Assembly: GCF_964204645.1 (NCBI RefSeq)
Contig: NC_134026.1
Span: 19,782,467-19,846,466 of the forward strand
Source: Tubulanus polymorphus
Lineage: Eukaryota; Animalia; Nemertea
Direction of reading: 5' to 3'
DNA: 64,000 nucleotides
Positions 18 through 62,412 of the stretch are shown here, one piece after another. Position 1 is the first letter of the stretch. Every line of letters begins with the position of its first letter. Made by a program: the position numbers and the translations under genes. Below the pieces are notes generated by a model, which made no database searches, had not been told where the DNA came from, and worked only from the letters and a program-made list of their open reading frames with translations.

Positions 18-808
18 ATGGTAAAATTCTGGGCAAACCTCGTATCAAAAAACAGAGAAACACTCTCTAGTAAAACGTATTCCATCCAATATGATTTAAG
101 CACGTCACAAAATATCAATTTCAAATGGTTATCCTCTATCCAAAATATACTCCAAGAGTGTGAAATGGCTAATTTCTGGTTAGAGCGAAATTTTCCTAAC
201 GTCCAGTGTATCTATGAATCTGTAAAGCTACGACTTACTGTTCAATTTATCCAGAAATGGCACGCAGACTGTACAGCATCATTTAAAGCGTTGACTTATC
301 GTCATATTAAACCGACTTTCAATACGCTTGAGCCTGAAAATTACATCCTCTCGTTACCCACATCCTACCGCATTTCCCTCTGTAGATATAAATGTAGCAA
401 CCTTTATTTACCCATAGAATCAGGCAGGCGACTCAGAATACCTCGAGAAGAACGACTTTGTACAAATTGTAACCTCAGTGTTTTGGGGGACGAGCGTCAC
501 ACTATATTAGAATGTAGTTTTTTCCAGATACAACGCAAAAAACTAATCCCTAGAAGAGAAGATTTTGGTCAACTCCAAATTTTGAAAATATGAACTCCCT
601 TTTCTGTACAAAAAATCAAAGAAATCTGATAAATATTTCTAGATTTATTCGAATATGCTCAAATTGAGTTTTAAACATGTATAATAGAGATGTGAACTCC
701 CCACGCTGTTATTCCGTCATCTGTATTTATGTATTATTAATGTATGTTTTGTTCAATGCGAATCGTGAATTGTGAACAATAAGAATTGAATCTGAATCTG
801 AATCTGAC
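18..808 (+). mobile_element. 3' fragment of a CR1/L2-like non-LTR retrotransposon: ORF2 C-terminus (18..593), then a 3' UTR ending in (GAATCT)n at 783..808
   Basis: The ORF ends with the Cys motif RLCTNCNLSVLGDERHTILEC (C-x2-C-x9-H-x4-C) typical of CR1/L2 ORF2 C-termini. A hexamer microsatellite tail follows, as in CR1-type 3' ends. The element is truncated by the window edge. Confidence 0.55.
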
Positions 809-1989
809 CATTTATTGACTTAACAACACTCAGGCTATAAACAACAAAAGCTATACAGACTACAGATCAATGATTATCTTCAAATCCACCAAACCTCTCA
901 TGTGCTTAGATACCACATCAGTTCGTATCATGCCCTTCAGTTCGTATATGAAGGGCGAAGCTATGCAGAAAACCTGTTATCGCTGCTTTGCAGCTGTATT
1001 TATTATATTGTTCTGTGCTTTGCCATGTCAATGTACGTATATTTACACTAGGAATAGCCACAATCAGCAGGGAGAAAAATATCATCAGCTCGATGAATTA
1101 ACTGGGGAGACCGACCTACGTGAAATTGGTCGCGGCACACCAATATCCTCTGTATATAAATCAAAGAAGTAGATAGATGCGTCACAAATAAAGTGCAAAA
1201 TTCCTCGATTACCTAGATATTTTAAACATTTTTAGATGTTAAAAATCTTTGAATTTTTGGTTTTCAACTAAATTATCGCTTTAATGAAGAGACGCGATAA
1301 ACTCGAATCATCGCCGAACCTTTTACAAAAATCACTGGTTTCATCGCAAATTATCTATTCAATTTATTCTGATTTATTCAAACAGCTTTCTTCATCCAAT
1401 GTTTCTTTTCATTTTGCAGTCCGTTCATCCGTCCGAAGACGGAATCCAGTTATTTCGATTAATACATGTATCTTAGACATGTCTTCAGCCAAAGATGGCC
1501 CGATCAGAGTCAAGATGGCCGACTGGCGGCCATTGTCGTTCACCGAAATCAGCAGTTTTTACACATTAAGCGAAATTTTGAAGACGCTATTTAATTGATA
1601 CCTGGTGTGAGTTACAAGATCATTGGTTTTCGTATACGGTCACCATTGAATTGAATATTGAATATTAACGATTGAATATTCATTTACTGTAGAAATCTTT
1701 GTTTTTGAGGTTCAGTTTTATAGTAAATAATTCACGTATAGTTGGCATAATGTTGCTGAGTTGTTCTCCTAAGTCGTTGCATATATTATTGGATGTGACA
1801 ATCAATACTCAAAAAGGTTCATCTCATGATATCGGCGATCCAAAAAATTAACTGCCTCCATCATTGAGTTTGATTATTGGCAATAAAACCTAATAGAATT
1901 TGAGTTGTTGATTTCCAATAAATCACATTCAGACCGAGAATGCTCGCCAATCAGCATTTGGGATGATGACCAACTGAGGCAGATTATAT

Positions 1990-2949
1990 TCATAGAAAAC
2001 AGTAAAACGCCCTCTTAATCAGGCCAACAAATTGTGCTCTGAAATACGAACCGGCCAGACAATAAATGAAAAAATTTAAGGCATGGTTCGAGTGCTTCAA
2101 TAAAACGAAAATTCCGAAAGTTGAAGGAGAACTAACGTTTACGTTTATGAGCGATGCTTGATAGGGTAATGTTGTACTGATGAAGACGAAATTAACGCAA
2201 AGGAGTAAACGAGTCAGGTTATCGTAACGCGAATCGTCATTTTTGGCTGTTTTGTGCATTTGTTTCGCCGCTGCGCGAGATCGGTTCAGTTGTACGATTA
2301 TGATCGTATTACACGCGGATATAATAAAAAAAGGCAGTATGGAATACGCAGCCGCAAATATCCATACTTGATATTCAGTAGTGTATATTCGCCAAGCCTC
2401 TGTTGGAGCACGACATTCATATCTATCCCGGACTAGTATCAAGCCGACGCTTCCAGCTAAAGTGACGGAGTTGATGACACCGACAAATATAGAGACTGCC
2501 GAAAAGAAGTACATCGCTCGACGTACTGTCCAGATAGTTTTGGCTTTCGTCGGTTGTACTACGCATATACATCTCTCAATCGTCAATAGGACAATAATCC
2601 ACGACGAGGTTTGTTCGGCGAATCTAGTAAAAAATGTCAGCGAAATACACGACGCGTTTGACGCAGCTCGTATGTCGGGAGGAAACTGTTGCGGCCAATT
2701 AACAACGCGCAGGAATTTCTTCACCAGTAACTCTAGATTTATGTCGAGCAAATCGAAGAAAGCTAAGAACATCATTAGAATACCGGTCGAGGAATTGCGA
2801 TAGAATTTCGAAGTCGATAGAACGACAAGCGCCGAAACGTTGCCGATATTGCCCAGTATGATGATAGGTAACGCGCCGTATTTGATGGCAAAGAAATAAT
2901 TTCTGAAGAATTTGTAGTAGAAGGATTGTGTTCCGTTAAAGGATGACAT
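1990..2949 (-). CDS. intronless class-A (rhodopsin-like) GPCR, paralog A, 319 aa
   Basis: Single 319-codon ORF with 7 hydrophobic segments. DRY-like ERC follows TM3 (LTIERCICVV), NPxxY-like NFFIY sits in TM7, an ECL2 Cys is present, and the N-terminus carries N-glycosylation sites (NGT, NVS). Confidence 0.8.
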   Translation of the reverse strand: MSSFNGTQSFYYKFFRNYFFAIKYGALPIIILGNIGNVSALVVLSTSKFYRNSSTGILMMFLAFFDLLDINLELLVKKFLRVVNWPQQFPPDIRAASNASCISLTFFTRFAEQTSSWIIVLLTIERCICVVQPTKAKTIWTVRRAMYFFSAVSIFVGVINSVTLAGSVGLILVRDRYECRAPTEAWRIYTTEYQVWIFAAAYSILPFFIISACNTIIIVQLNRSRAAAKQMHKTAKNDDSRYDNLTRLLLCVNFVFISTTLPYQASLINVNVSSPSTFGIFVLLKHSNHALNFFIYCLAGSYFRAQFVGLIKRAFYCFL

Positions 2950-3040
2950 CAGAATCAGACTGAAATACAGGTTATCTGAGAATTACTGCTTGAGAAGTGA
3001 TGACACTCATTTGTTAATTGGTTGAAAACGCGCTGATATT
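2950..3040 (-). promoter_or_regulatory. conserved 5' flank of GPCR paralog A: CCAAT box (plus 3017..3021) and a splice-acceptor-like tttcag immediately upstream of the ATG
   Basis: gcgcgttttcaaccaat ... tttcagtctgattctgATG is mirrored at 6661..6735 upstream of paralog B. Confidence 0.4.
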
Positions 3041-5154
3041 TATCATAATCTCAATCGATCATATCGCAATATTGCAAAATCTCTATTCGATGACGGTGCA
3101 TTTTAAAAGATTAATCGATTTGCTTGATGGAAAGTGCATTGGGTATGTAGGTTTTTTCTTCAGAAGTCGATATTATTTTTCATTTGCATCGGAATTAGCT
3201 ATCTTATAGAAAAAGTTAGTTCGGGCTAGATAAATTTCAGTTTAGTCCTGTCCCTGCGTATAGTCACCGTTACCATTCATTTTCGAATGATTTCTACCAA
3301 TGTTTCGGTTCCTCTCACATCGTTTAACCGGTGATTCTAGGAGTAGACTCACCTTACATCAATGATAGGCCTATGTTGACGACTATGTCCAGAGAGAAAA
3401 AATCTTCCGTTGCAATAATAGTTTTATGTGTTTATTGATAACTGTGTTAAAGCGTACTATGTGAGTCAATGTGCACTACGTCATCAATAAATTTTGGCGT
3501 TTTATATCGTATTTCATATCATTATATTATCAAGTTAGTTTTCTTGTTATCTTTCCACCATACCGGCAGTTGATTGATATGGCACCAGTAATTTAGACGG
3601 AGAATGAGAAATAAAGATAGATTTATGTCACCATTAGGACACCGTTGTACATATGCCTAAAACTAAACGTATATTTTCAATATTCAATAAAGCCATTAGC
3701 ATGGTCCGCGATATGTGTATCCGGACAAGGAAACCGAGACATTCTTTGAATCGGATAAAGTTCCGTGGTTCGTAAACGCCTGGCATTTGCTTCATTTGAT
3801 ATTTCTAAATTGGGAGAAACGCAAAGGAGATTTAAAAAAAACACAAAAGGGAACGAAGCTTTGTTTAGCATTAACTAAGAATTCTTAAATGTTCATTATT
3901 ATTAAGCGTTTACATGTATGCTACTTCAAATTTCGATGTAACTTCCAAATCTACTTCAATCATTCAGTTTTTGAATCTGTATTTACCTAATATATCATTT
4001 GTAGATTTATACATATAAATAGTTTAGACCTATATTGTACGTTTAAGTTAAGGAGACGGTGTGTGCGGCAACATCTCGGTAAATTGTCAAATATGTTTTA
4101 TCAATGAATGATTTATCGAGTCCTGCGCAATCCAGAGAGTTAATTTGATGATTTTGACAACAAGGGAAAGTTTTTAAGCCATAAAACCTATACATTTATT
4201 TTGCCTCCGAAAACTGAAGAAAAGTCAAATGAAAATAATTTTTTTCCAGTGAAATTCAGTGACACGAATTCAGTGAAAAAATGAGCAAAAAAATGTTTTT
4301 CACCTCCGACGAATGAGAACCCTGGCTTGAATGATGAAAAAAATTGAAAAATGAGAGGTTCTTTTTTGATCGCAGTGTGTAGAATTCGAACTTTCCAAGA
4401 ATCATTTGTTTGGACATATGTATATTGCCCTATCGACAGTTCCCTCTTCCTTCAAAAAGTTATCTTATCCCTCTAAGAGAATTTTTTTTAAATTTTAATT
4501 CCCTCCTCCGAAATGATATTTCAATAGGTCTACCCGCAAGCCAAGCTATTAAAAAAGTCTAAGAAATTATGTTTTCATAAATGACGTAGGCCTATATATA
4601 TCTAACATGATTATTTGTAATTGATGTCTTGTACTTTCATACTTGAATAATACGTTTAAAATAAGAATTTGCGTTACATACATTAAAATTTCTTTGCTTA
4701 GTTTGAATTTGACTTTGAAATTTGATTTGACATTGACCTTGAATTGATTTCAAAATACCATATTTGGACAGCGCATATCAGAAGACATTTTCATCGTGAT
4801 AACTAGGACTCACGTTTTATCTACCGAAGAAATCGGGAATCTGTTGCCATGGAAACGCATTTTTCACATTGTCACAAAGAAATGCAAATCACATAAATAT
4901 CGTATATGGACTCAGGTAAGAACATATAATCAATGTACCATAAAATTGGAGTTTGTGCGATATTGTCTTACCTCAATACATTTCGTCCTATTTTTGCTGA
5001 CGGACTAATATTAATCATCACCGAAATAGGGATTCATCATTTATTGTTAATTGTTCAATATCATTTATGATTATGGAAATTATGGAAAAATATGAATAAG
5101 GAAAAATGCCTGAGAGCTTGATGGAAAGATCCCTTTGTAAGTCTCGATATATAT

Positions 5155-5392
5155 AAATATAGCCGCAAAGCAGCGATAAGGGGTTTTCTGCATAGCAGCA
5201 TCATTAATATGCAGACCTTTGGAAATGATAAGTAGAACTGAAAAAAATTGTTCGAAGCTATATATGGTACAACTACGTCAATGTATTATATGATAATAAT
5301 GATATATTTTCTCATCCACAGTAAGACCTTACAAATGACTTCGATACGACATAGTTCTAACAAGCACTGTGACCATTCAATAAAAGTTAACT
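5155..5392 (+). repeat. SINE-like repeat, family B, about 240 bp
   Basis: tatagccgcaaagcagcgataaggggttttctgcatagcagcatcattaatatg ... ggtaagaccttacaaat ... aacaagcact is repeated at 31627..31852. Partial reverse-complement copies lie at about 955..1025 and 46190..46250. Confidence 0.65.
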
Positions 5393-6660
5393 CCAATTAT
5401 TGACGTGTATATCGGATTCATACCCAAAACAGTGGTTTGGTATTAGTTGGAATGGAAACGTATCTCGAACCTTAAGGCCCCCGCACACGAGCGAATTTTA
5501 CGTACGCATCTAGCGCAGACCGCACACGAGCCGAAAACAGCGTTCAGCAAAGCGAGCTGTGGCAAGCACGTAAGCATTATGCAACCATATTTACTGCATA
5601 TCTGCACCATTTACTCGCAATTATTTTTGATCGAAATAATCTGATACATATTCACATCCGAAAATCTGTATTGTCGATGTAAATCGTTTTTTTTAAAGTG
5701 ACAGACAGTTAATACGAGTTCATAGTTCTCTTACGCTACGAAACATACTCAGAAGATGCATGTATCATGTTGACCCTCTAGATAAGTTTTTTGACGATTC
5801 TGTAGATCAAACTTAGAAGTTGCTGAAGCCATTTCCGATGTCGTGATCTGTATACGAAGAATTGGTGAATACGCACGTTGGCGAATTGGCTATTACATAT
5901 GTTAGAAAATCTACCAAACCTCTCATATGTTAAGAGATCATATTCAGCACCGAATACTACGAACTGACGTTATAATGCGAAGAAAAGATCTTCATATATG
6001 TAATACAAAAATTTTGGAAATTCTTTATTTCATTAAAGAAAACTCCAGAATTCGATTACCTAAATATAATTAATCAATCGAGAAAAATATTTCGAACAGA
6101 ATCTAACATTCTATGACACGCTGACAACTAAAGGGCATGTCACCGTTACGGTTTGCTTTATTCACTGATAAGAATGGAGGTGCAGGAGGCCGGAGTAGAA
6201 CATGATTTAACAAAAATTTGGTAGAAATCCGTTAAGTATAGGAGCTTTAGGCTTTTAGTGACTTTTGGCGATGATCTGCTTGGACAGGGGAAATACTAAC
6301 AAAAATAATTTATTCTTATCAAAATTCTATTTTCGAAGTCATTGAGACCGTCCACCGCACAATTACCCGGTATAGTCATCAGGCCCCAGACGCGCATTTC
6401 ATCTTGGTTTCGTCATTGCATTGTAATGTATTGCACTGCATTGCATATTCCATCATTAATCTGTAAATTGTATTATATACAATAAGTTGTAATATATACG
6501 GGTATTTCGTTTTGTTTGGAAGAAAAATTAGGGAAAAAATGAAATGCTAGATCATTTCTCGAGAAGAATTATCAATATTCACTCTCATCGATTGGAAATT
6601 ACGGCGTTGATTTTTAGGATGATAGTTTTTATGATAATCGTATTGATAGTAATAAAAGTC

Positions 6661-6735
6661 TGCGCGTTCTCAACCAATGATAAAGTTTCAGACTCATTCC
6701 AAATACGTCAATGGTAATCTCCGTATTCCAGTCTG
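6661..6735 (+). promoter_or_regulatory. conserved 5' flank of GPCR paralog B: CCAAT box (6674..6678) and an acceptor-like tattccag directly before the ATG
   Basis: gcgcgttctcaaccaat ... ttccagtctgATG. Conservation between the two paralogs stops just upstream of this block. Confidence 0.4.
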
Positions 6736-7698
6736 ATGACATCGTCAAACGGAACACAAGTTTCCGTCTTATTCACCTACTATAAAGATTACTTCTTCGT
6801 CATCAAATACGGCGCGTTACCTATCGTCATACTGGGCAATATCGGCAACGTTTCGGCTCTTGTCGTTCTATCGACTTCGAAATTCTATCGCAATTCTTCG
6901 ACCGGTATTCTAATGATGTTCTTAGCGTTCTTTGATTTGCTCGACATAAATCTGGAGTTACTCGTGAAGAAATTCCTGCGCGTTGTCAATTGGCCGCAAC
7001 AGTTTCCTCCCGACATACGAGCAGCGTCAAACGCGGCGTGTATTTCGCTGACATTTTTGAATAGGTTTACCGAACAAATTTCGTCGTGGATTATTGTCCT
7101 GTTGACGATTGAGAGATGCATATGCGTAGTACAACCGACGAAAGCCAAAACTATCTGGACTGTACGACGAGCGATGTACATCTTTTTTGTAGTCTCTATA
7201 TTAGTCGGCGGCGTAAATTCTACCATATTTGCGGGAAACGTCAGTTTGATACTAGTCCGGGGTGAATATGAATGTCGTGCTCCAACAGCTGCTTGGCGAA
7301 CATACTCCACCAAATACCGAGTATGGGTATCTGCAGCCACCTATTCGATACTGCCTTTTCTAGTCATAACCGCGTGTAATACGATTATAATCGTACAACT
7401 GAATCGATCTCGCGCAGCGGCGATACAAATGAACAAAACGGCCAAAAATGACGATTCGCGTTACGACAACCTGACTCGTTTACTGTTATCCGTTAATATC
7501 GTGTTCATCAGTACAACATTACCCTATCAAGCATCGCTTATAAACGTATCCATTCGTTCTCCTTCAACTTTCGGCATGTTCGTTTTATTGAAACACTCGA
7601 ACCATGCCTTGAATTTTTTCATCTACTGCCTGGCCGGTTCGTATTTCAGAGCCCAATTTGTTGGTCTGATAAGCAGAGCATTTTTCTGTTTTCGGTGA
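6736..7698 (+). CDS. intronless class-A GPCR, paralog B, 320 aa, head-to-head with paralog A
   Basis: Roughly 85 % aa identity to the 1990..2949 ORF with the same ERC and NFFIY motifs. About 90 bp of 5' flank, including a CCAAT box, is also duplicated. Confidence 0.8.
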   Translation: MTSSNGTQVSVLFTYYKDYFFVIKYGALPIVILGNIGNVSALVVLSTSKFYRNSSTGILMMFLAFFDLLDINLELLVKKFLRVVNWPQQFPPDIRAASNAACISLTFLNRFTEQISSWIIVLLTIERCICVVQPTKAKTIWTVRRAMYIFFVVSILVGGVNSTIFAGNVSLILVRGEYECRAPTAAWRTYSTKYRVWVSAATYSILPFLVITACNTIIIVQLNRSRAAAIQMNKTAKNDDSRYDNLTRLLLSVNIVFISTTLPYQASLINVSIRSPSTFGMFVLLKHSNHALNFFIYCLAGSYFRAQFVGLISRAFFCFR

Positions 7699-10600
7699 GA
7701 TTTTTGTCAAGAACTATACCTCGGTTCAAAATGCTTAGGAGGCACGATCTAATTATTTCTAATTCGACCGCAAACATTTGTGTGTAGTAAATACATGTAT
7801 ATGAAAATGATAAGCTAGTTTCTCTCGGACGGCACGATTATTGGAAATCGCTAATGTATATTTGAGGACACTGTTTATGTTTTCAATCGAATCCATCGTG
7901 ACTGCAAGATTTTTCCCTGGTCTTCGATATGTGTATATATATACGTAAGTTTACCGTATGTCTAGGAAAAAACCCAGAACGAAGCAGTTCGAGTAAATAA
8001 TGAATATTGATTGGTGGCATTCTTAAAAGGAACACCGTGCACCCAACGACTCCCTAAGGCTTTCCTCACACAAGACACCGAAATTCTCAAAATAAGATAC
8101 ATTTTAGTTGAACAACTGCGTGTACTTGAATCAAGCCGTTCCTTTCAGGTTTTCCTATGATGACGGGTGGAACCATGCTTTCTCTCTTCCAAATCATTCA
8201 ATTTTAGAACCCATGATTTGATGATGCCCCATCGAAATACCTATACGTACAAGCATCGTGAATCAAAACAAGCGTCAACCCACAATCATCTCCTAAATAC
8301 AATAACCATGATTAGCGTGACGTCCTGACAGCTTTAGAAGGTGGTTATACAATATAAATTTGGTCCTAAATACAAACGATAAAATGATTGGAAGAACGGC
8401 GATGAAGTATCGACCAAGGTGAAATTCAGGCTGCACACACTACCAACTCAAACAACAATCGCTAGGGATAGAATTCACTATCAATGCAATGCACATGCTG
8501 CTAGATTTTTCCATCTATATTTTCCGTAGCTCTATGCCGCCGAATATAGAATAAAGAGACAAATAGACAACGACTAGCGAAATCATTGGATATATATTAT
8601 ATTCATATATACGTATATTTGCATATATAGATCTATACGTGAGCATTTTTTTCTGAAAATGAGTTGTCGATAACCTATACATTACATTAACAATCTGCCA
8701 TTTATAAATAAATCAAATCTCATAATTTCACTTCATCAAAAAACGCAACTACGCATTCTATTTTACGGTACCCGGGAATGGGGTGTTTCAAAGACTGGGT
8801 ATATGAAGGCGCGAGTTTATGAAGTTACGGTGCGACCGATAACGACTGGCTGAGGAGAAACCGATCGTAGCAGGGCTACAACTGCAAGCGGCTATACTGG
8901 GATAAGTGATGTAATCCATGGTGATAAATCATAGACATATGACATTTCGACATATTTCTTCTTATTGGAAACCAATATTCAATTACTAGTAGGTTCAGGC
9001 TGGATGGAAGATTCAAATAAAAATTTCATCAAGTCAACCAACCACCCAACTTGCGCTTATCTGCAAAAAAATATAATGTTCATTTCACCTGATCATGGCC
9101 AGGAGGAAGTCATCTCAATTCAAGTTGTAACCTTCAATTCAATTGCGGGTTTACTCGATTGATGATAGATTTGAAAAGTTCAGGAAGTTTAATTCATTGC
9201 CCAGTCTACAAATTCAGCCCCGGGACCTGAGGGAGCACGGCAAGACATTGTGGCTTCTCTAAATGAAGAAGATAGCATCTCACCGTACTAACTAATGTAT
9301 CACAATAAAGCTACAACAACGATAACAACGAATCAATATGAAAACTATAGTGAATAAACTAGATTTTTTAAAGAAAATAAATAGGCAGCTAAATTTAGAC
9401 TTCAGGTCATTCATATAGGCCTAAAATAGAACCTTGAAATAGCAACATGACATGCGCGATATAAGGACATAACAAACATAATATAAACTTCTAAATCAAT
9501 GCACGATAGTGAATACAAGGAACTATAACATATTCTAGTCCCCTAAAGTGCATTCTAATGTGGTTCCATTGCACTACATGATCTTCTGTCGAAAAACTTC
9601 AGGGGTCAGTTTAAAAAACAGATAGGCGTCGAATTCGTAATCTCAGAAAAGGCTTGAAAATTTCTCAGTTTCATTTGTGGAATCTCTCGAAAATAAATGA
9701 ATAGAAAAACTCAAACCCTGGGCTTTATCTAGGAGTGCCACCATTAAACTGCCCCCCCCCCTTATATAAAATGATTGAAAAAATAGTGTTCTTTGAGATT
9801 TTTTCAAAGAAAATGTATCAATTTTGATTCAATTAAGGCATTTACTTTGTTGGAGGTGGATTTTGTTTTACATTCAGATGTTTTCAATTTCAGAAGACAC
9901 ATTAAGGTAATCAGTAACAAGAAAATTTTGAATCAGTTACTATCGAAAATTTTACATTTTTGATGATGGTAGCAAAACCTTCAACCAGGATGAGAGGCTG
10001 AATTCTCAGATGATTAGGGTTTTGAAATTAATTCCAAGTATTCAGCCTCTCTGGGTTCAGTTTCATGAAAAAGTTTAAAGTTTAAATCGGTTTAGTTTGA
10101 ATTGTTGTCCTCATTAACAATTTGAAATAATCACTTGGCAATTAAACAAAAATTTTCAGTTAAAAGTTTTTATGAAACTAAACCCTGGAAATAAACGATG
10201 AATTGAGGCATTCTCTCGAAAGTAAGACACCAAAGTTTCTAGATTAGAATAGATGGATTTTAAATTCATCTAAAAACTTTGCTCTGACAGTACACGTAAC
10301 ATTATTAGAGACCTTCCATACACAAGCGGATATGCTTTCATATACAGTTCGTAACCGTAAAAATTTAAACAGTTTCTCTATGTTTCCAGAACTTGTGACC
10401 GTTATACATATTCCAAGATCCAAAATATTCATTAACTTTTGAAAACGTAATGAAAGTGGGATATCTCAATGATTTGTATAGAGTTTACCAAGTAAAACAA
10501 TTTGTTCGTCCAAAAATGTCTGAGTACGGTACTTGAGAAAAGTTGGATTAATGATATTATCATCAAAATAATAATATCAATGTTAAGTTGCTTTCATAGG

Positions 10601-30791: not shown

Positions 30792-31626
30792 CTACAAGCA
30801 AAAAAAAGCAGTGTTATTTATGATTTATGGTATAAGGCTAAAAAAATCGATACAGTTTCTCATTTGTGCTGATGTTGAAAGTTGAGTTGACCGGTCACCT
30901 ATCTACCATGTACGGGTACATCAATTTTTTTTTCAATCATGATCAAGCTAACCAAGACCCAGGAGCTATAGAAATGAACTGATTAATCAACTTATCACAG
31001 TTAACAAAGTGACCCGGCCAATTAGGAGAAACACGTTATCATTCCTTAGTCTAACGGATACCAGGCTTGTAGCCGAGCGGTCACTTATTCATGCCCCTTA
31101 AACCTTTCTTTCTGTTCAACAATGCACTTGATTCATGCAGTCAAATTCCTCGATATACCACCCACATCGGTGATCAAAATAGAGAGGTTCCGTTAGGCAG
31201 GGGTTGCGGTACACCAGGTACACCAGGCTGTATATGCTAATCATTCATGAAATACAAACGAAAATACACATATCTTTTTCTAAGTTTAAAATCTCACAGC
31301 ACTGCTATAGACTCTAATTGAAAATGATATATTGCTAGTAGATAATTTGATGATGCTGATAAAGAATTTAGGACAGGCCATCTTAGATGGCAGCGTCTAT
31401 CAATAATGTTGTTTTCAGTTAATGGGAGTCCTGTCCACAATAAAACATTTAGAAGAGAGGTACAGAATTCTGTATCAACGTTGCTCCAAACATACCAGTA
31501 CTCATTTATTCAAGAATGTTTCATCTTTTACTGAAAATTTTGTGGGATTATACACATTTTGTAATCACAATCAATTGCAAATTTTGTGGCTAATGACATG
31601 TTCTTAAATTGTAGTTTCAAAATCAA

Positions 31627-31852
31627 ATATAGCTGCAAAGCAGCGATAATGGGTTTTCGGCCTAGCAGCATCATTAATATGTAAGTATATGAAAATTTAA
31701 ATGAAAAAATTGTTTATTGTCGGGGTTTCGAACCCGACATGACTGGTACAACTATATCAATATGTCATATATCACGGTAAGACCTTACAAATTATTTTTG
31801 ATATGACTTGAGTTTAAACAAGCACTATGAGACTATTCAATACAAGCCATAG
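31627..31852 (+). repeat. second full copy of repeat family B, abutting a family-C copy
   Basis: Alignable to 5155..5392 along its whole length. Confidence 0.65.
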
Positions 31853-33061: not shown

Positions 33062-34171
33062 TCAAGCTTCGGTAGCGTTAAGTGCGGGTGTCGGTGATAC
33101 CGGTGTCTCTTCGGACTTTTTTGTTTTATCATTCATTCGATCTCTCAATCGGTTGTCGCTAAGAGCGCCATCTGTCGACCGAAATTGAAACTTCACGACA
33201 AACACTTCCCTTACCTTTTGACTGGTCAATGCGTAAATGAGAAAATTAACCGAATAGCTCATCTCCCATAGAATGATGGGCATTGTACCGCACGCAAACT
33301 TCAATACTTGCTGTAAGCGTGGGAGCGCGGCTATTAGAGTGACAGCAACGATGGTAGGGAATAGTAGTACGAGAAAAACGAGCATGACGAAGAGCATGAG
33401 ACGAGTGACCTTGTAATTGGTCAGCCTGATCGCTGCCATCGGTGTTCTAGCACTGCGCCTACTCAGAACCGCGATGATGCTAACGCAACAGACTGTTATG
33501 ATGATGAAAGGCAGGTAGCCGATCATCAGAATTCCGAGAACGTTCGAGTCATAACGCCGACTGGGCATTCTACAGCCAGCGCCGTCGTTCATCCACGGCC
33601 GCAGCGACGCATCGATCGACATGACACACAGCACGCCGAGAACCGTGCAACAGGTGGCAGCACACGCCGATCGACGGCGACATAAACGTCGAGCTGACAT
33701 CGGGAAACAGACGACGATGAAACGCTCGACGCTGATCAACGTTACCAACCAACTGCTCAACGCGGCAAAATAAAAACTTGTGTATTTCATTACGGTTTTC
33801 GTCAAGCCGCCGCTGACCGCGATCACCAATGGTCCGCCGGAGAGCGCGCCAACAAAATTGATCCAGAAAATACCGTGCAGAATCAAATTACAGCCGTCGC
33901 TGACGGCTAAAGCCGCCAGGTACACGGCGAACGAGCGCTCGCGCATTTTCGTCATTGCCATAACAACGAACGATATGATGTTCGACATCAGACCGAAGAT
34001 CATGAAGACCGAAGTGAAAACGATTTGTACCCATTTTATCCATGGGTTCAGCGTGTTCACCAAATCCACTGGATAGACGAAATAAAAGTAGCAGTACGCT
34101 CCTTCGAGGAGATCACTTTCATTCGCGGAATTCGAAGTCAAATTCATCGTTTTTGCATTGTATATATTCAT
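33062..34171 (-). CDS. intronless class-A GPCR, 369 aa, nested in a TEP1 intron on the same strand
   Basis: 7TM ORF with ERF (ISVERFIVV) after TM3, NFLIY in TM7 and LFPT in TM6. These are the same non-canonical motif variants seen in the 5' GPCR pair. N-terminal N-glycosylation sites are present. Confidence 0.75.
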   Translation of the reverse strand: MNIYNAKTMNLTSNSANESDLLEGAYCYFYFVYPVDLVNTLNPWIKWVQIVFTSVFMIFGLMSNIISFVVMAMTKMRERSFAVYLAALAVSDGCNLILHGIFWINFVGALSGGPLVIAVSGGLTKTVMKYTSFYFAALSSWLVTLISVERFIVVCFPMSARRLCRRRSACAATCCTVLGVLCVMSIDASLRPWMNDGAGCRMPSRRYDSNVLGILMIGYLPFIIITVCCVSIIAVLSRRSARTPMAAIRLTNYKVTRLMLFVMLVFLVLLFPTIVAVTLIAALPRLQQVLKFACGTMPIILWEMSYSVNFLIYALTSQKVREVFVVKFQFRSTDGALSDNRLRDRMNDKTKKSEETPVSPTPALNATEA

Positions 34172-35990: not shown

Positions 35991-36065
<75 letters not shown>

Positions 36066-36066
36066 T

Positions 36067-36098
<32 letters not shown>

Positions 36099-49380: not shown

Positions 49381-50061
49381 TTACGAATTTACCTTTGATT
49401 CTTCCAAAGTTTCCCCGAAAGCAGGTTCGAGCGGCATAGAAATAATCGGCAATTCTTCGGCGACGAGAAATTTTTCATCCGCAAATGCCTCATCGGTCAA
49501 ATCATAATACGGCATCGGATGAACGATATTATCGTGAACGGTGTAACTTTCTCGTTTTTCCGTCTTCAAACCGGCGGCGCCTGAGGATCGTACGGCAGAC
49601 GGCTTGAATAGCGGCGAAGACGACCGACCAGACAACGACGTCGTCAACAAAGACTTGTAAGTCGATGATGAGCCCGTAAGCGTCGATGATAAATTCCGAG
49701 TAAGATTTACGCCGCTCAATCTCAGACTATTTCCCGAAATCGAACTTCCCGATAGTAAATTCGATTTTGTCGTCAAACTGCTCTTCCCTGATAAACAAGT
49801 TGTTAAACTACTTTTCCCTAACGACGCAGATCCGACATTAGCACCTCTCAAGCCATTCGAGTCAGGACTTGGTATTTTATAGAGGAGCGGATTTTTCAAA
49901 CTGCCGAGAGATGTCAAAGGTTTTGAAGCGACGTCGCTCTTTCTTCCAGAGACATTTTCCGACCTTGAACGGCTACTGCCTTTTAGCGGAACTTTGCTAA
50001 CGGAAAAACTCGCTTTGGTTCTTTTATCTGCTGAAGAAAAAAAAACTTGGTACTCATGCAA
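49381..50061 (-). CDS. Ser-rich 226-aa ORF ending in a consensus donor; candidate 5' coding exon of the TEP1-like gene, or a separate disordered protein
   Basis: 681-nt ORF in AT-rich DNA, M at 50061, ending ...FGETLEESK|gtaaat in phase 0. This is phase-compatible with the exon at 47275..47436. No homology recognised. Confidence 0.35.
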   Translation of the reverse strand: MHEYQVFFSSADKRTKASFSVSKVPLKGSSRSRSENVSGRKSDVASKPLTSLGSLKNPLLYKIPSPDSNGLRGANVGSASLGKSSLTTCLSGKSSLTTKSNLLSGSSISGNSLRLSGVNLTRNLSSTLTGSSSTYKSLLTTSLSGRSSSPLFKPSAVRSSGAAGLKTEKRESYTVHDNIVHPMPYYDLTDEAFADEKFLVAEELPIISMPLEPAFGETLEESKVNS

Positions 50062-60082: not shown

Positions 60083-62412
60083 CTCAAAATGGGGTCCCAA
60101 AATTAATTCAGATATACGCAATGCATAGGCCTAAACTCAATTCATGATATAGCCCTATATACATGATATCAAAAATACATAAAGATCTTGATGTAAACTA
60201 CCTAGTAATATTTGGCATAAATCTTTAATTCAATGTAATTCGCTGTAATTAAATTGTAATAAGCTGTAATAGCTGTAATAACCATATAAAACATACGTAA
60301 TATTTGGCATAAATCTTTGATTCAATGTAATTCGCTGTAATTAAAGTGTAATAAGCTGTAATTGCTGTAATAACCATATAAAAAATACGTAATATTTGGC
60401 ATAAATCTGTAATTCAATGTAATTCGCTGTAATCGAGGTGTAATAAGCTGTAATAGCTGTAATAACCAGATAAAACATAGTAATATTTGGCATAAATCTG
60501 TAATTCAATGTAATTCACTGTAATCGAGGTGTAATAAGCTGTAACAGCTGTAATAACCAGATAAAACCTAGTAATATTTGGCATAAATCTGTAATTCAAT
60601 GTAATTCGCTGTAATCGTGGTGTAATAAGCTGTAACAGCTGTAATAACCAGATAAAACCTAGTAATATTTGGCATAAATCTGTAATTCAATGTAATTCGC
60701 TGTAATTAAAGTGTAATAAGCTGTAATAGTTGTAATAACCAGATAAAACCTAGTAATATTTGGCATAAATCTGTAATTCAAATTGAATTAGGCCTACAGA
60801 TTTATGCCAAATATTACTAGGTTTTATCTGGTTATTACAACTATTACAGCTTATTACACTTTAATTACAGCGAATTACATTGAATCAATGTAATTCGCTG
60901 TAATTAAAGTGTAATAAGCTGTAACAGCTGTAATAACCAGATAAAACCTAGTAGTATTTGGCATAAATCTGTAATTCAATGTAATTCGCTGTAATTAAAG
61001 TGTAATAAGCTGTAATAGTTGTAATAACCAGATAAAACATACATAATATTTGGCATAAATTTGTAATTCACTGTAATTCGCTGTAATTAAAGTGTAATAA
61101 GCTGTAATAGCTGTAATAACCAGATAAAACCTAGTAATATTTGGCATAAATCTGTAATTCAATGTAATTCGCTGTAATCGAAGTGTAATAAGCTGTAATA
61201 GTTGTAATAACCAGATAAAACATACGTAATATTTGGCATAAATCTGTAATTCAATGTAATTCGCTGTAATTAAAGTGTAATAAGCTGTAATAACCAGATA
61301 AAACCTAGTAATATTTGGCTTAAATCTGTAATTCAATGTAATTCGCTGTAATCGAGGTGTAATAAGCTGTAATAGTTGTAATAACCAGATAAAACATACG
61401 TAATATTTGGCATAAATTTGTAATTCAATGTAATTCGCTGTAATTAAAGTGTAATAAGCAGTAATAGCTGTAATAACCAGATAAAACCTAGTAATATTTG
61501 GCTTAAATCTGTAATTCAATGTAATTCGCTGTAATCGAGGTGTAATAAGCTGTAATAGTTGTAATAACCAGATAAAACATACGTAATATTTGGCATAAAT
61601 TTGTAATTCAATGTAATTCGCTGTAATTAAAGTGTAATAAGCTGTAATAGCTGTAATAACCAGATAAAACATACGTAATATTTGGCATAAATTTGTAATT
61701 CAATGTAATTCGCTGTAATTAAAGTGTAATAAGCTGTAATAGCTGTAATAACCAGATAAAACCTAGTAATATTTGGCATAAATCTGTAATTCAATGTAAT
61801 TCACTGTAATCGAAGTGTAATAAGCTGTAACAGCTGTAACAACCAGATAAAACCTAGTAATATTTCACATAAATCTGTAATTCAATGTAATTCGCTGTAA
61901 TTAAAGTGTAATAAGCTGTAATAGTTGTAATAACCAGATAAAACCTTGTAATATTTGGCATAAATCTGTAATTCAATGTAATTTGCTGTAATTAAAGTGT
62001 AATAAGCTGTAATAGCTGTAATAACCAGATAAAACCGGCAACCTGTAAAACCTGTTATTACAGTCATTACAGCTTATTACACCCTAATTACAGCGAATTA
62101 CATTTAATTACAGATTTATGCCAAATATTACTGGTTTTATCTGGCTATTACAGCTATTACAGCTTATTACACCTCGATTACAGTGAATTACATTGAATTA
62201 CAGATTTGCGCAAAACCTTTCATTTCTCTTCAGAAAGTTACTGTTTATTAGGCCTATAAACATACATGCATAGGCTATTTGATGTATGCCTGTATAATGA
62301 ATTGAGTTTAGGCCTATGCTAAATAAGGCTAAATAAAGCCAGGGACTTTATTACAAATTACATGTAATATGAAAAAAAAAGTTAATTTTGGGACCCCATT
62401 TTAAGCCACAAA
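60083..62412. mobile_element. Foldback-like element filling SUPV3L1 intron 6
   Basis: Imperfect terminal inverted repeats (ggggtcccaaaatt...gcataggcctaaactcaattcat versus reverse complement at 62260..62412). Inverted terminal satellite units at 60781..60900 and 62040..62215 bracket the internal array. Confidence 0.65.
60198..62040 (+). repeat. about 20 tandem copies of a 91-bp satellite unit with ctgtaat sub-repeats
   Basis: taatatttggcataaatctgtaattcaatgtaattcgctgtaattaaagtgtaataagctgtaatagctgtaataaccagataaaacatacg recurs with period 91..92. The 225-aa ORF at 60995..61672 is a repeat artefact. Confidence 0.9.

Follow-up and report, generated by a model that had tools for sequence, protein, structure and literature searches.

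Two genes with a single-exon coding sequence, both for G-protein-coupled receptors (GPCRs) of class A, lie in inverted orientation in a 64,000-nucleotide stretch of the genome of the nemertean Tubulanus polymorphus (NCBI RefSeq assembly GCF_964204645.1, contig NC_134026.1, positions 19,782,467 to 19,846,466 of the forward strand), which is called here the window. They are referred to as paralogs A and B. The favoured interpretation, which is regarded as reasonably probable, is that A and B are lineage-specific inverted local duplicates of a peptide-receptor-like class A GPCR gene, in which the replacements that followed the duplication are concentrated at the extracellular entrance of the receptor, copy A being the derived one in the second extracellular loop (ECL2) and the fifth transmembrane helix (TM5).

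The receptor gene pair

The two open reading frames (ORFs) are divergently oriented, with facing 5' ends and an ATG-to-ATG distance of 3,786 bp. In a repeat search they appear as one inverted repeat of 936 nt at 88%. The initial annotation, made from the DNA letters alone, had described a head-to-head pair of inverted ORFs about 3.8 kb apart, intronless and approximately 85% identical, and each of these statements holds, the absence of introns as regards the coding sequence. The coordinates are matched exactly, the lengths being 319 and 320 amino acids; the proteins share 267 of 320 aligned residues (83.4%), and identity at the DNA level is 87.9% over 963-966 nt. Both ORFs are intact, with 117 substitutions between them. 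The alignment of the 322-residue T. polymorphus protein XP_074654580.1 with the ORFs begins at the shared first methionine, covers the full length and meets no interruption, and the whole coding sequence (CDS) is therefore contained in one exon. No third close paralog of A and B is present within the window.

A long antisense ORF was also observed within each of the two genes (2381..2803, plus strand, 140 amino acids; 6885..7340, minus strand, 151 amino acids). The two resemble each other, and most likely reflect the conserved sense sequence together with AT-rich codon usage rather than genes.

Homologues were searched for among 5.8 billion clustered proteins, and XP_074654580.1, which is 69% identical, is the sole close one. 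This protein alone was used as outgroup throughout. When 1.84 billion cluster representatives were scanned exhaustively with HMMER, no other match above 35% identity appeared; the next-best matches are other GPCRs of T. polymorphus and Lineus longissimus, with assorted automatic names. The outgroup itself is automatically named "FMRFamide receptor-like", and paralogs of the same family in these two species are named CCR7-like, sex-peptide-receptor-related, neuromedin-U-receptor-like and GHSR-like. Because the name is automatic and sister paralogs are named otherwise, the label is no proof of orthology to a characterised FMRFamide receptor. Outside the variable parts described below, the outgroup is equidistant from the two copies (identity 0.71 to A and 0.70 to B), whereas A and B are there 90-95% identical to each other; the duplication is therefore later than the split from XP_074654580.1. 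Judging from these comparisons, A and B are lineage-specific local duplicates without one-to-one orthologues.

Distribution of the replacements

Divergence between the two copies is not uniform along the protein. The extracellular N-terminus and the segment from TM4 through ECL2 to the outer part of TM5 show identities of 45% and 66%, respectively, against 90-95% in the remaining regions, in agreement with the initial annotation, which had placed the divergence in these two parts and had described the rest as nearly identical. Its helix labels were likewise correct, as an AlphaFold2 (AF2) model of B puts residues 145-214 on TM4, the ECL2 hairpin and outer TM5. Altogether, 35 of the 52 amino-acid replacements sit in 92 codons, and the N-termini differ at 12 of 22 aligned positions, a one-codon indel included. 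The significance of this clustering was evaluated by a scan statistic, in which the richest window of 70 codons holds 24 differences (permutation p of 0.00065), and by a region test, defined post hoc, which gives a Fisher p of 2e-10. The seven-helix core and the side facing the G protein are barely changed between A and B.

Positions differing between A and B were compared with positions at which only the outgroup differs. TM4-TM5 has a ratio of 24:10 and the N-terminus one of 12:5, against 17:53 in the rest of the protein (Fisher test against the rest, 1.1e-5 and 9e-4, respectively). Since a constant rate per site would yield an equal ratio everywhere, the segment has been accelerated after the duplication. 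The third intracellular loop (ICL3) and ECL1, which vary in the family and in the comparison with the outgroup, are nearly unchanged between A and B, and general looseness therefore accounts for only part of the pattern.

The changes were also assigned to the two branches. Of the eight polarisable changes in residues 170-214, every one belongs to A and none to B (binomial 0.008, post hoc); they are G176D, E177R, A185E, T189I, K193E, R195Q, V198I and L209F. Copy A has a net charge of 0 in the segment formed by ECL2 and the top of TM5, where B has +3 and the outgroup +4. At about position 5.42 of TM5, 40 of 47 relatives have Asp or Glu, and the outgroup has Asp; this residue is changed in both copies, to Ser in B and to Phe in A. 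Polarised replacements in the core are divided almost evenly, the A branch having 4 and the B branch 5. As far as the polarised positions tell, the two copies have diverged asymmetrically, A being the derived one in ECL2/TM5, a feature absent from the initial annotation.

The strength of selection is expressed as the ratio of the non-synonymous to the synonymous substitution rate (dN/dS). The ratio is 0.29-0.41 for the whole gene, as estimated by four methods, and 0.15-0.20 for the core (Fisher 4e-11 against neutrality). Both copies are intact and under purifying selection.

Taken as a sequence of events, the favoured reading would run as follows. After the duplication, replacement was concentrated at the entrance, made up of the N-terminus, the outer part of TM4, the beta-hairpin of ECL2 and TM5 in its outer half. 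Copy B would retain the ancestral ligand recognition, while that of copy A, with its entrance charge of 0, may have been shifted or loosened; the signalling machinery is probably unchanged in both. Transcription of each copy probably proceeds from that copy's side of the 3.8-kb spacer, and splicing may join a non-coding 5' exon to it, 4-10 nt ahead of the ATG.

Alternative explanations

Several observations weigh against the favoured reading, or limit it. In the variable part dN/dS is 0.50-0.59 (bootstrap 95% confidence interval 0.29-0.90), and no window or branch estimate is above 1, so that adaptive diversification is inseparable from local relaxation. Within ECL2/TM5 the A branch has a ratio of 0.6-1.0 and the B branch one of 0-0.4, when an equal split of synonymous changes is assumed; by this estimate the A-branch rate is neutral-like at most, which leaves adaptive change undemonstrated. 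The differences between A and B favour columns that are variable in the family (entropy 2.92 vs 2.34, p=1.5e-4), and those in TM4 and TM5 lean to the family-variable helix face (p=0.08 and 0.03, respectively), a face which could look to the pocket or to the lipid. In TM4, conservative exchanges between hydrophobic residues make up about half of the changes. Moreover, the regions were chosen after inspection of the data, the test of asymmetry is post hoc, and the polarisation depends on a single outgroup protein. Of the ligand-pocket diversification proposed in the initial annotation, the focus of replacement on the N-terminus and TM4-ECL2-TM5 is thus retained, and the adaptive cause is unproven; a ratio far below 1 in the variable segment, which would have spoken against that proposal, is not what was found either. 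Positive selection and local relaxation are drivers between which the data cannot discriminate, and relaxation is to be taken as a serious rival. In its pure form it states that the extracellular N-terminus, TM4 and ECL2, which in any class A GPCR are the parts under least constraint, drifted under redundancy, mainly in A, and that recognition is unchanged. The dN/dS values of 0.5-0.6 in the segment and of about 1 at most on the A branch, the preference for family-variable columns and faces, and the mostly hydrophobic swaps of TM4 are all consistent with it. Other family-variable regions (ICL3, ECL1 and ECL3), however, have changed with respect to the outgroup and hardly at all between A and B; the eight ECL2/TM5 positions that are common to B and to an outgroup only 69% identical have changed in A, several of them with charge reversal; the nearly invariant Asp of the family was replaced twice, by different residues; and the core of copy A is not relaxed. 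Relaxation as the whole explanation is accordingly considered rather doubtful. A stronger version of the favoured reading, in which the pair stands at an early step of receptor neofunctionalisation, is proposed with similar reserve, as a possibility less likely than its denial: both copies would have lost the acidic residue at about 5.42, A would have rebuilt the charge of its entrance (from +3/+4 to 0, with at least 8 replacements) and gained a new ligand, and B would keep the ancestral one.

The same distribution could be produced by a mosaic history, in which an old duplication was homogenised by gene conversion over most of the gene, and the N-terminus and TM4-TM5 either escaped or received a patch from a third paralog. 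Close paralogs in inverted orientation are typical substrates of conversion, and the homology has sharp ends, at about -113 on one side and at the stop codon on the other, like those of a conversion tract. Furthermore, the point estimates of synonymous divergence (dS) are 1.6-2 times higher in the variable part (0.40-0.45 vs 0.20-0.25), which also counts against the favoured reading; this rise is far below the roughly six-fold excess of dN in the same part. Counts of synonymous differences are, on the other hand, alike along the gene. Codons for identical residues carry a synonymous difference in 9 of 46 cases in the variable part and in 36 of 221 elsewhere, four-fold sites differ in 8 of 31 and 18 of 99 cases (p=0.44), a scan along the gene detects no clustering (p=0.66), and a two-fold synonymous excess in the variable part is rejected (p=0.038). 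The block from TM1 to TM3 has a dS of about 0.19 with a dN of 0.02, despite its near-identity, which argues that it was not recently converted, and a third close paralog is found neither in the window nor in the database for T. polymorphus. Because synonymous differences are spread through the gene, the mosaic is no footprint of recent or partial gene conversion; conversion as its source is rejected on the synonymous-site counts, and the mosaic history as a whole is judged very improbable. Hardly credible at all is the notion that one of the copies has no function any more or arose in the assembly, for instance as an inverted haplotig, and that the pattern is biologically meaningless. Repeats and retroelement fragments are present in the neighbourhood, as such an origin might predict, but both frames have stayed open over all the substitutions, with a core dN/dS of 0.15 and replacements evenly split, and at most about 10 core replacements are observed where a neutral copy would carry some 60. 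A DNA divergence of 12% with codon structure, together with non-homologous flanks, is moreover unlike what haplotypes show. On account of the intact constrained frames, the divergence and the flanks, both the artefact and the pseudogene are rejected.

Receptor class and family motifs

Both proteins match the Pfam profile 7tm_1 (PF00001) over positions 1-260 of 260, with E values of 3.1e-16 for A and 4.5e-15 for B (60.1 and 56.3 bits, cut-off 30.5). The Srw profile of nematode chemoreceptors (PF10324) is matched more weakly than 7tm_1, at 37.6 and 37.8 bits (cut-off 22.2), and this match shows, at the level of profiles, a resemblance to FMRFamide-receptor-like GPCRs and not orthology. The AF2 model of B, made from a 50-sequence alignment, has a predicted local distance difference test score (pLDDT) of 90.4 and a predicted template modelling score (pTM) of 0.88, and contains seven transmembrane helices plus helix 8. 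Foldseek searches with this model retrieved opioid, neurotensin and somatostatin receptors, with a probability of 1.00 and template modelling scores of 0.74-0.85. Among solved structures, the closest by sequence and fold are class A receptors that bind peptides (opioid, neurotensin, somatostatin and neuromedin U receptors), at 18-22% identity. According to profiles and model, A and B are class A GPCR genes of peptide-receptor-like type.

The signature residues N38 (N1.50), D67 (D2.50), C102/C180 (the pair C3.25-ECL2), E126-R127 (R3.50), P207 (P5.50) and P263 (P6.50) are present, and are shared by A, B, the outgroup and 45-47 of 47 relatives; none of 50 sequences departs from C102 and C180. ECL2, which forms a hairpin, has a length of about 18 residues (167-184). 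The TM3 motif of A and B is ERC in place of DRY. The canonical NPxxY of TM7 is not found in A and B, which have NFFIY, and Phe takes the place of Pro at 7.50 (B residue 294) in 50 of 50 aligned members; NFFIY is therefore a family-level variant, and no defect of A and B themselves.

Table 1. Position of the two receptor genes, of their parts and flanks, and of the third receptor gene. Nucleotide positions refer to the window; rows given in residues refer to the protein of paralog B.
Feature	Position	Strand	Remarks
Paralog A	1990..2949	-	Complete single-exon CDS, 319 amino acids, class A GPCR; ECL2/TM5 derived; ORF, Pfam, end-to-end alignment with XP_074654580.1
Paralog B	6736..7698	+	Complete single-exon CDS, 320 amino acids, class A GPCR; outgroup state in ECL2/TM5; ORF, Pfam, AF2, Foldseek
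Variable extracellular N-terminus of A (residues 1-21)	2887..2949	-	NGT glycosylation sequon kept
Variable extracellular N-terminus of B (residues 1-22)	6736..6801	+	Alignment
Variable segment of A (residues 144-213; TM4, ECL2 hairpin, outer TM5)	2311..2520	-	24/70 residues unlike B
Variable segment of B (residues 145-214; TM4, ECL2 hairpin, outer TM5)	7168..7377	+	Alignment and AF2 model
B codon 199 (TCT, Ser; about 5.42 in TM5)	7330..7332	+	Counterpart in A TTT (Phe), 2356..2358, minus strand
Upstream block of A	3017..3062	-	-113..-68; ends in CCAAT (3017..3021, -72..-68)
Upstream block of B	6634..6678	+	-102..-58; ends in CCAAT (6674..6678, -62..-58)
Proximal leader of A	2950..2970	-	CTGTATTTCAG / TCTGATTCTG; acceptor-like TTTCAG at 2960..2965, ending 10 nt before ATG
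Proximal leader of B	6718..6735	+	TCTCCGTATTCCAG / TCTG; acceptor-like TTCCAG at 6726..6731, ending 4 nt before ATG
Spacer between the genes	2971..6717		AT-rich, GC 0.30-0.40; copies of a dispersed repeat at about 5147..5429
Third class A GPCR	33062..34171	-	Single-exon CDS, 369 amino acids, 7tm_1 E 3e-14; 26 kb from the pair
N-terminus	B residues 1-22		A-B identity 45%
TM1 to second intracellular loop (ICL2)	B residues 23-144		A-B identity 95%
TM4-ECL2-outer TM5	B residues 145-214		A-B identity 66%
ICL3-TM6	B residues 215-268		A-B identity 93%
TM7-C-terminus	B residues 281-320		A-B identity 90%
TM1	B residues up to 47		AF2 model
TM2	B residues 55-84		AF2 model
TM3	B residues 99-132		AF2 model
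TM4	B residues 143-166		AF2 model
ECL2 beta-hairpin	B residues 170-181		AF2 model
TM5	B residues 185-231		AF2 model
TM6	B residues 240-269		AF2 model
TM7	B residues 276-300		AF2 model
Helix 8	B residues 302-319		AF2 model

Upstream flanks and spacer

The initial annotation had described a duplicated 5' flank of about 90 bp, with a CCAAT box and an acceptor-like tttcag directly before the ATG. The duplicated flank turned out not to be continuous but to be made of two separate patches. The distal block covers 47 columns at about 81% identity (Smith-Waterman score 41, against a mean of 21 and a maximum of 32 for shuffles), the other one, of 16-17 nt, adjoins the ATG, and the stretch between them barely aligns, no better than shuffled DNA. 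Above the level of shuffled DNA, no similarity between A and B was detected beyond about -115 or past the stop codon. Homology ends no more than a few bases from the stop codon; as neutral sites in the gene are about 80% identical, flanks of the same age should align. From the extent of the alignable DNA, the duplicated, or last converted, tract seems to measure about 1.07 kb.

The identity of the distal block equals that of four-fold (neutral) sites in the pair, and the block need not, therefore, be constrained. A CCAAT does end both copies of it, as had been noted, but its role as a promoter element is not borne out: chance alone gives about 0.12 occurrences of CCAAT per 47 nt, and conservation of the block does not exceed that of neutral sites. 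CCAAT was accordingly discarded as promoter evidence. Similarly, an acceptor-like hexamer precedes the ATG in both copies; the one in B reads TTCCAG, and the two end 10 and 4 nt upstream of the ATG rather than directly before it. Acceptor-like motifs at no more than 12 nt upstream are found at 3% of the ATGs of the window. Both paralogs carry one, and so does the unrelated third GPCR (Table 1), with a tattttttag ending 9 nt before its ATG. These occurrences, together with the acceptor of the distant relative described below, lend the acceptor reading some support from comparison. For a single transcript the two readings conflict, since a used acceptor would put the CCAAT block in an intron.

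Some further observations concern these leaders and their relatives. In the leader of A (2950..2961, minus strand), 6 nt situated between the acceptor-like motif and the ATG are duplicated in tandem (TCTGAT TCTGAT), where B has one TCTGAT. A relative 31% identical is found at 9900..10915 of contig ctg5677l in ENA ERZ24900295, a eukaryote-like contig in a metagenome assembly. An in-frame ATG is missing in this relative, whose seven-helix open frame begins immediately past a strong ttatttttttag acceptor, and a coding intron must therefore be located just before TM1 in that gene. The database protein model of the relative has a non-ATG start codon and is truncated.

No further inverted homology, such as a shared upstream exon, was found in the spacer, and no match to Rfam was obtained in the window at the gathering threshold. 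A short dispersed repeat occurs at 5147..5429 within the spacer, and also at 926..1008, 31621..31846 and 37553..37824; its copies are 77-93% identical and occur in both orientations. It is probably an element similar to a short interspersed nuclear element (SINE) or to a miniature inverted-repeat transposable element (MITE).

Other features of the window

The third GPCR is about 25% identical to A and B, and 69% identical to its best match, T. polymorphus LOC141910406, which is located on a different chromosome-sized contig from the homologue of the A/B pair.

Several repeats were also observed. A satellite array at 60200..62036 is composed of a 91-bp unit repeated about 20 times, with a higher-order period of 183 bp and 87-88% matches, and its GC content goes down to 0.28; a spurious ORF of 225 amino acids at 60995..61672 arises from it. 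A 154-bp tandem repeat of about 3.9 copies occupies 43396..44001, and a (TA)50 microsatellite lies at 35993..36093. Two additional ORFs have no Pfam match. The first (18..593, plus strand, 191 amino acids) ends in a Cys-x2-Cys ... His-x4-Cys motif, and presumably resembles the C-terminal end of the ORF2 proteins of retrotransposons devoid of long terminal repeats (non-LTR). The second (49381..50061, minus strand, 226 amino acids) is serine-rich; it may belong to an unannotated gene, as one of its large exons, or be a low-complexity frame that arose by chance.

Relation to known receptor families

In peptide-binding class A receptors the N-terminus, ECL2 and the outer part of TM5 help to bind the peptide ligand. 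A and B share with the solved members of this class (opioid, NTSR1, SSTR2 and neuromedin U receptors) the fold and an ECL2 beta-hairpin tied to TM3 by the cysteine pair, and differ from them in the low sequence identity, as well as in the ERC and NFFIY motifs. A second parallel is offered by the vertebrate odorant, TAAR and TAS2R genes, which have a one-exon CDS, often with an upstream non-coding exon, are locally duplicated, and whose paralogs differ mainly in the ligand-facing TM3-TM5; within class A, however, the A/B family is unrelated to them.

Large tandem expansions of class A GPCRs, mostly lineage-specific, have been described across Lophotrochozoa, Nemertea included, Notospermus geniculatus having about 2,352 genes and Lineus longissimus about 1,009; variability in these expansions is highest at the extracellular helix ends and loops, ECL2 is long (25-30 residues), and the conserved TM3-ECL2 disulfide is lacking (PMC11886862). 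A and B resemble them in being locally duplicated, lineage-specific nemertean class A GPCRs with extracellular variability, whose nearest relatives are nemertean GPCRs, and in being clustered, the copies lying 3.8 kb apart and a third, 25%-identical GPCR 26 kb off. Unlike those expansions, the present case consists of a two-gene inverted pair only, with a single recognisable homologue, and A and B keep the invariant TM3-ECL2 cysteine pair, their ECL2 being a short hairpin of about 18 residues. In molluscs, about 450 'FMRFamide receptor-like' GPCRs are known from Lymnaea stagnalis, in tandem groups of 4-26 (PMC11589774). The automated label of the closest homologue, the rhodopsin-type, peptide-receptor-like fold and the local duplication are common to these clusters and to the pair; for the A/B homologue, however, the label is automatic only, and its sister paralogs bear other names.

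The pair is thus one more local duplicate in the very large class A GPCR repertoire of nemerteans, whose growth and extracellular variability have already been published, and no long-standing question is opened or settled by it. It is useful as a small and clean test case, in which a nearly identical core and a single outgroup are combined with about 35 differences at the extracellular entrance. Chimeras in which parts of A and B are swapped could map the determinants of ligand specificity with few constructs.

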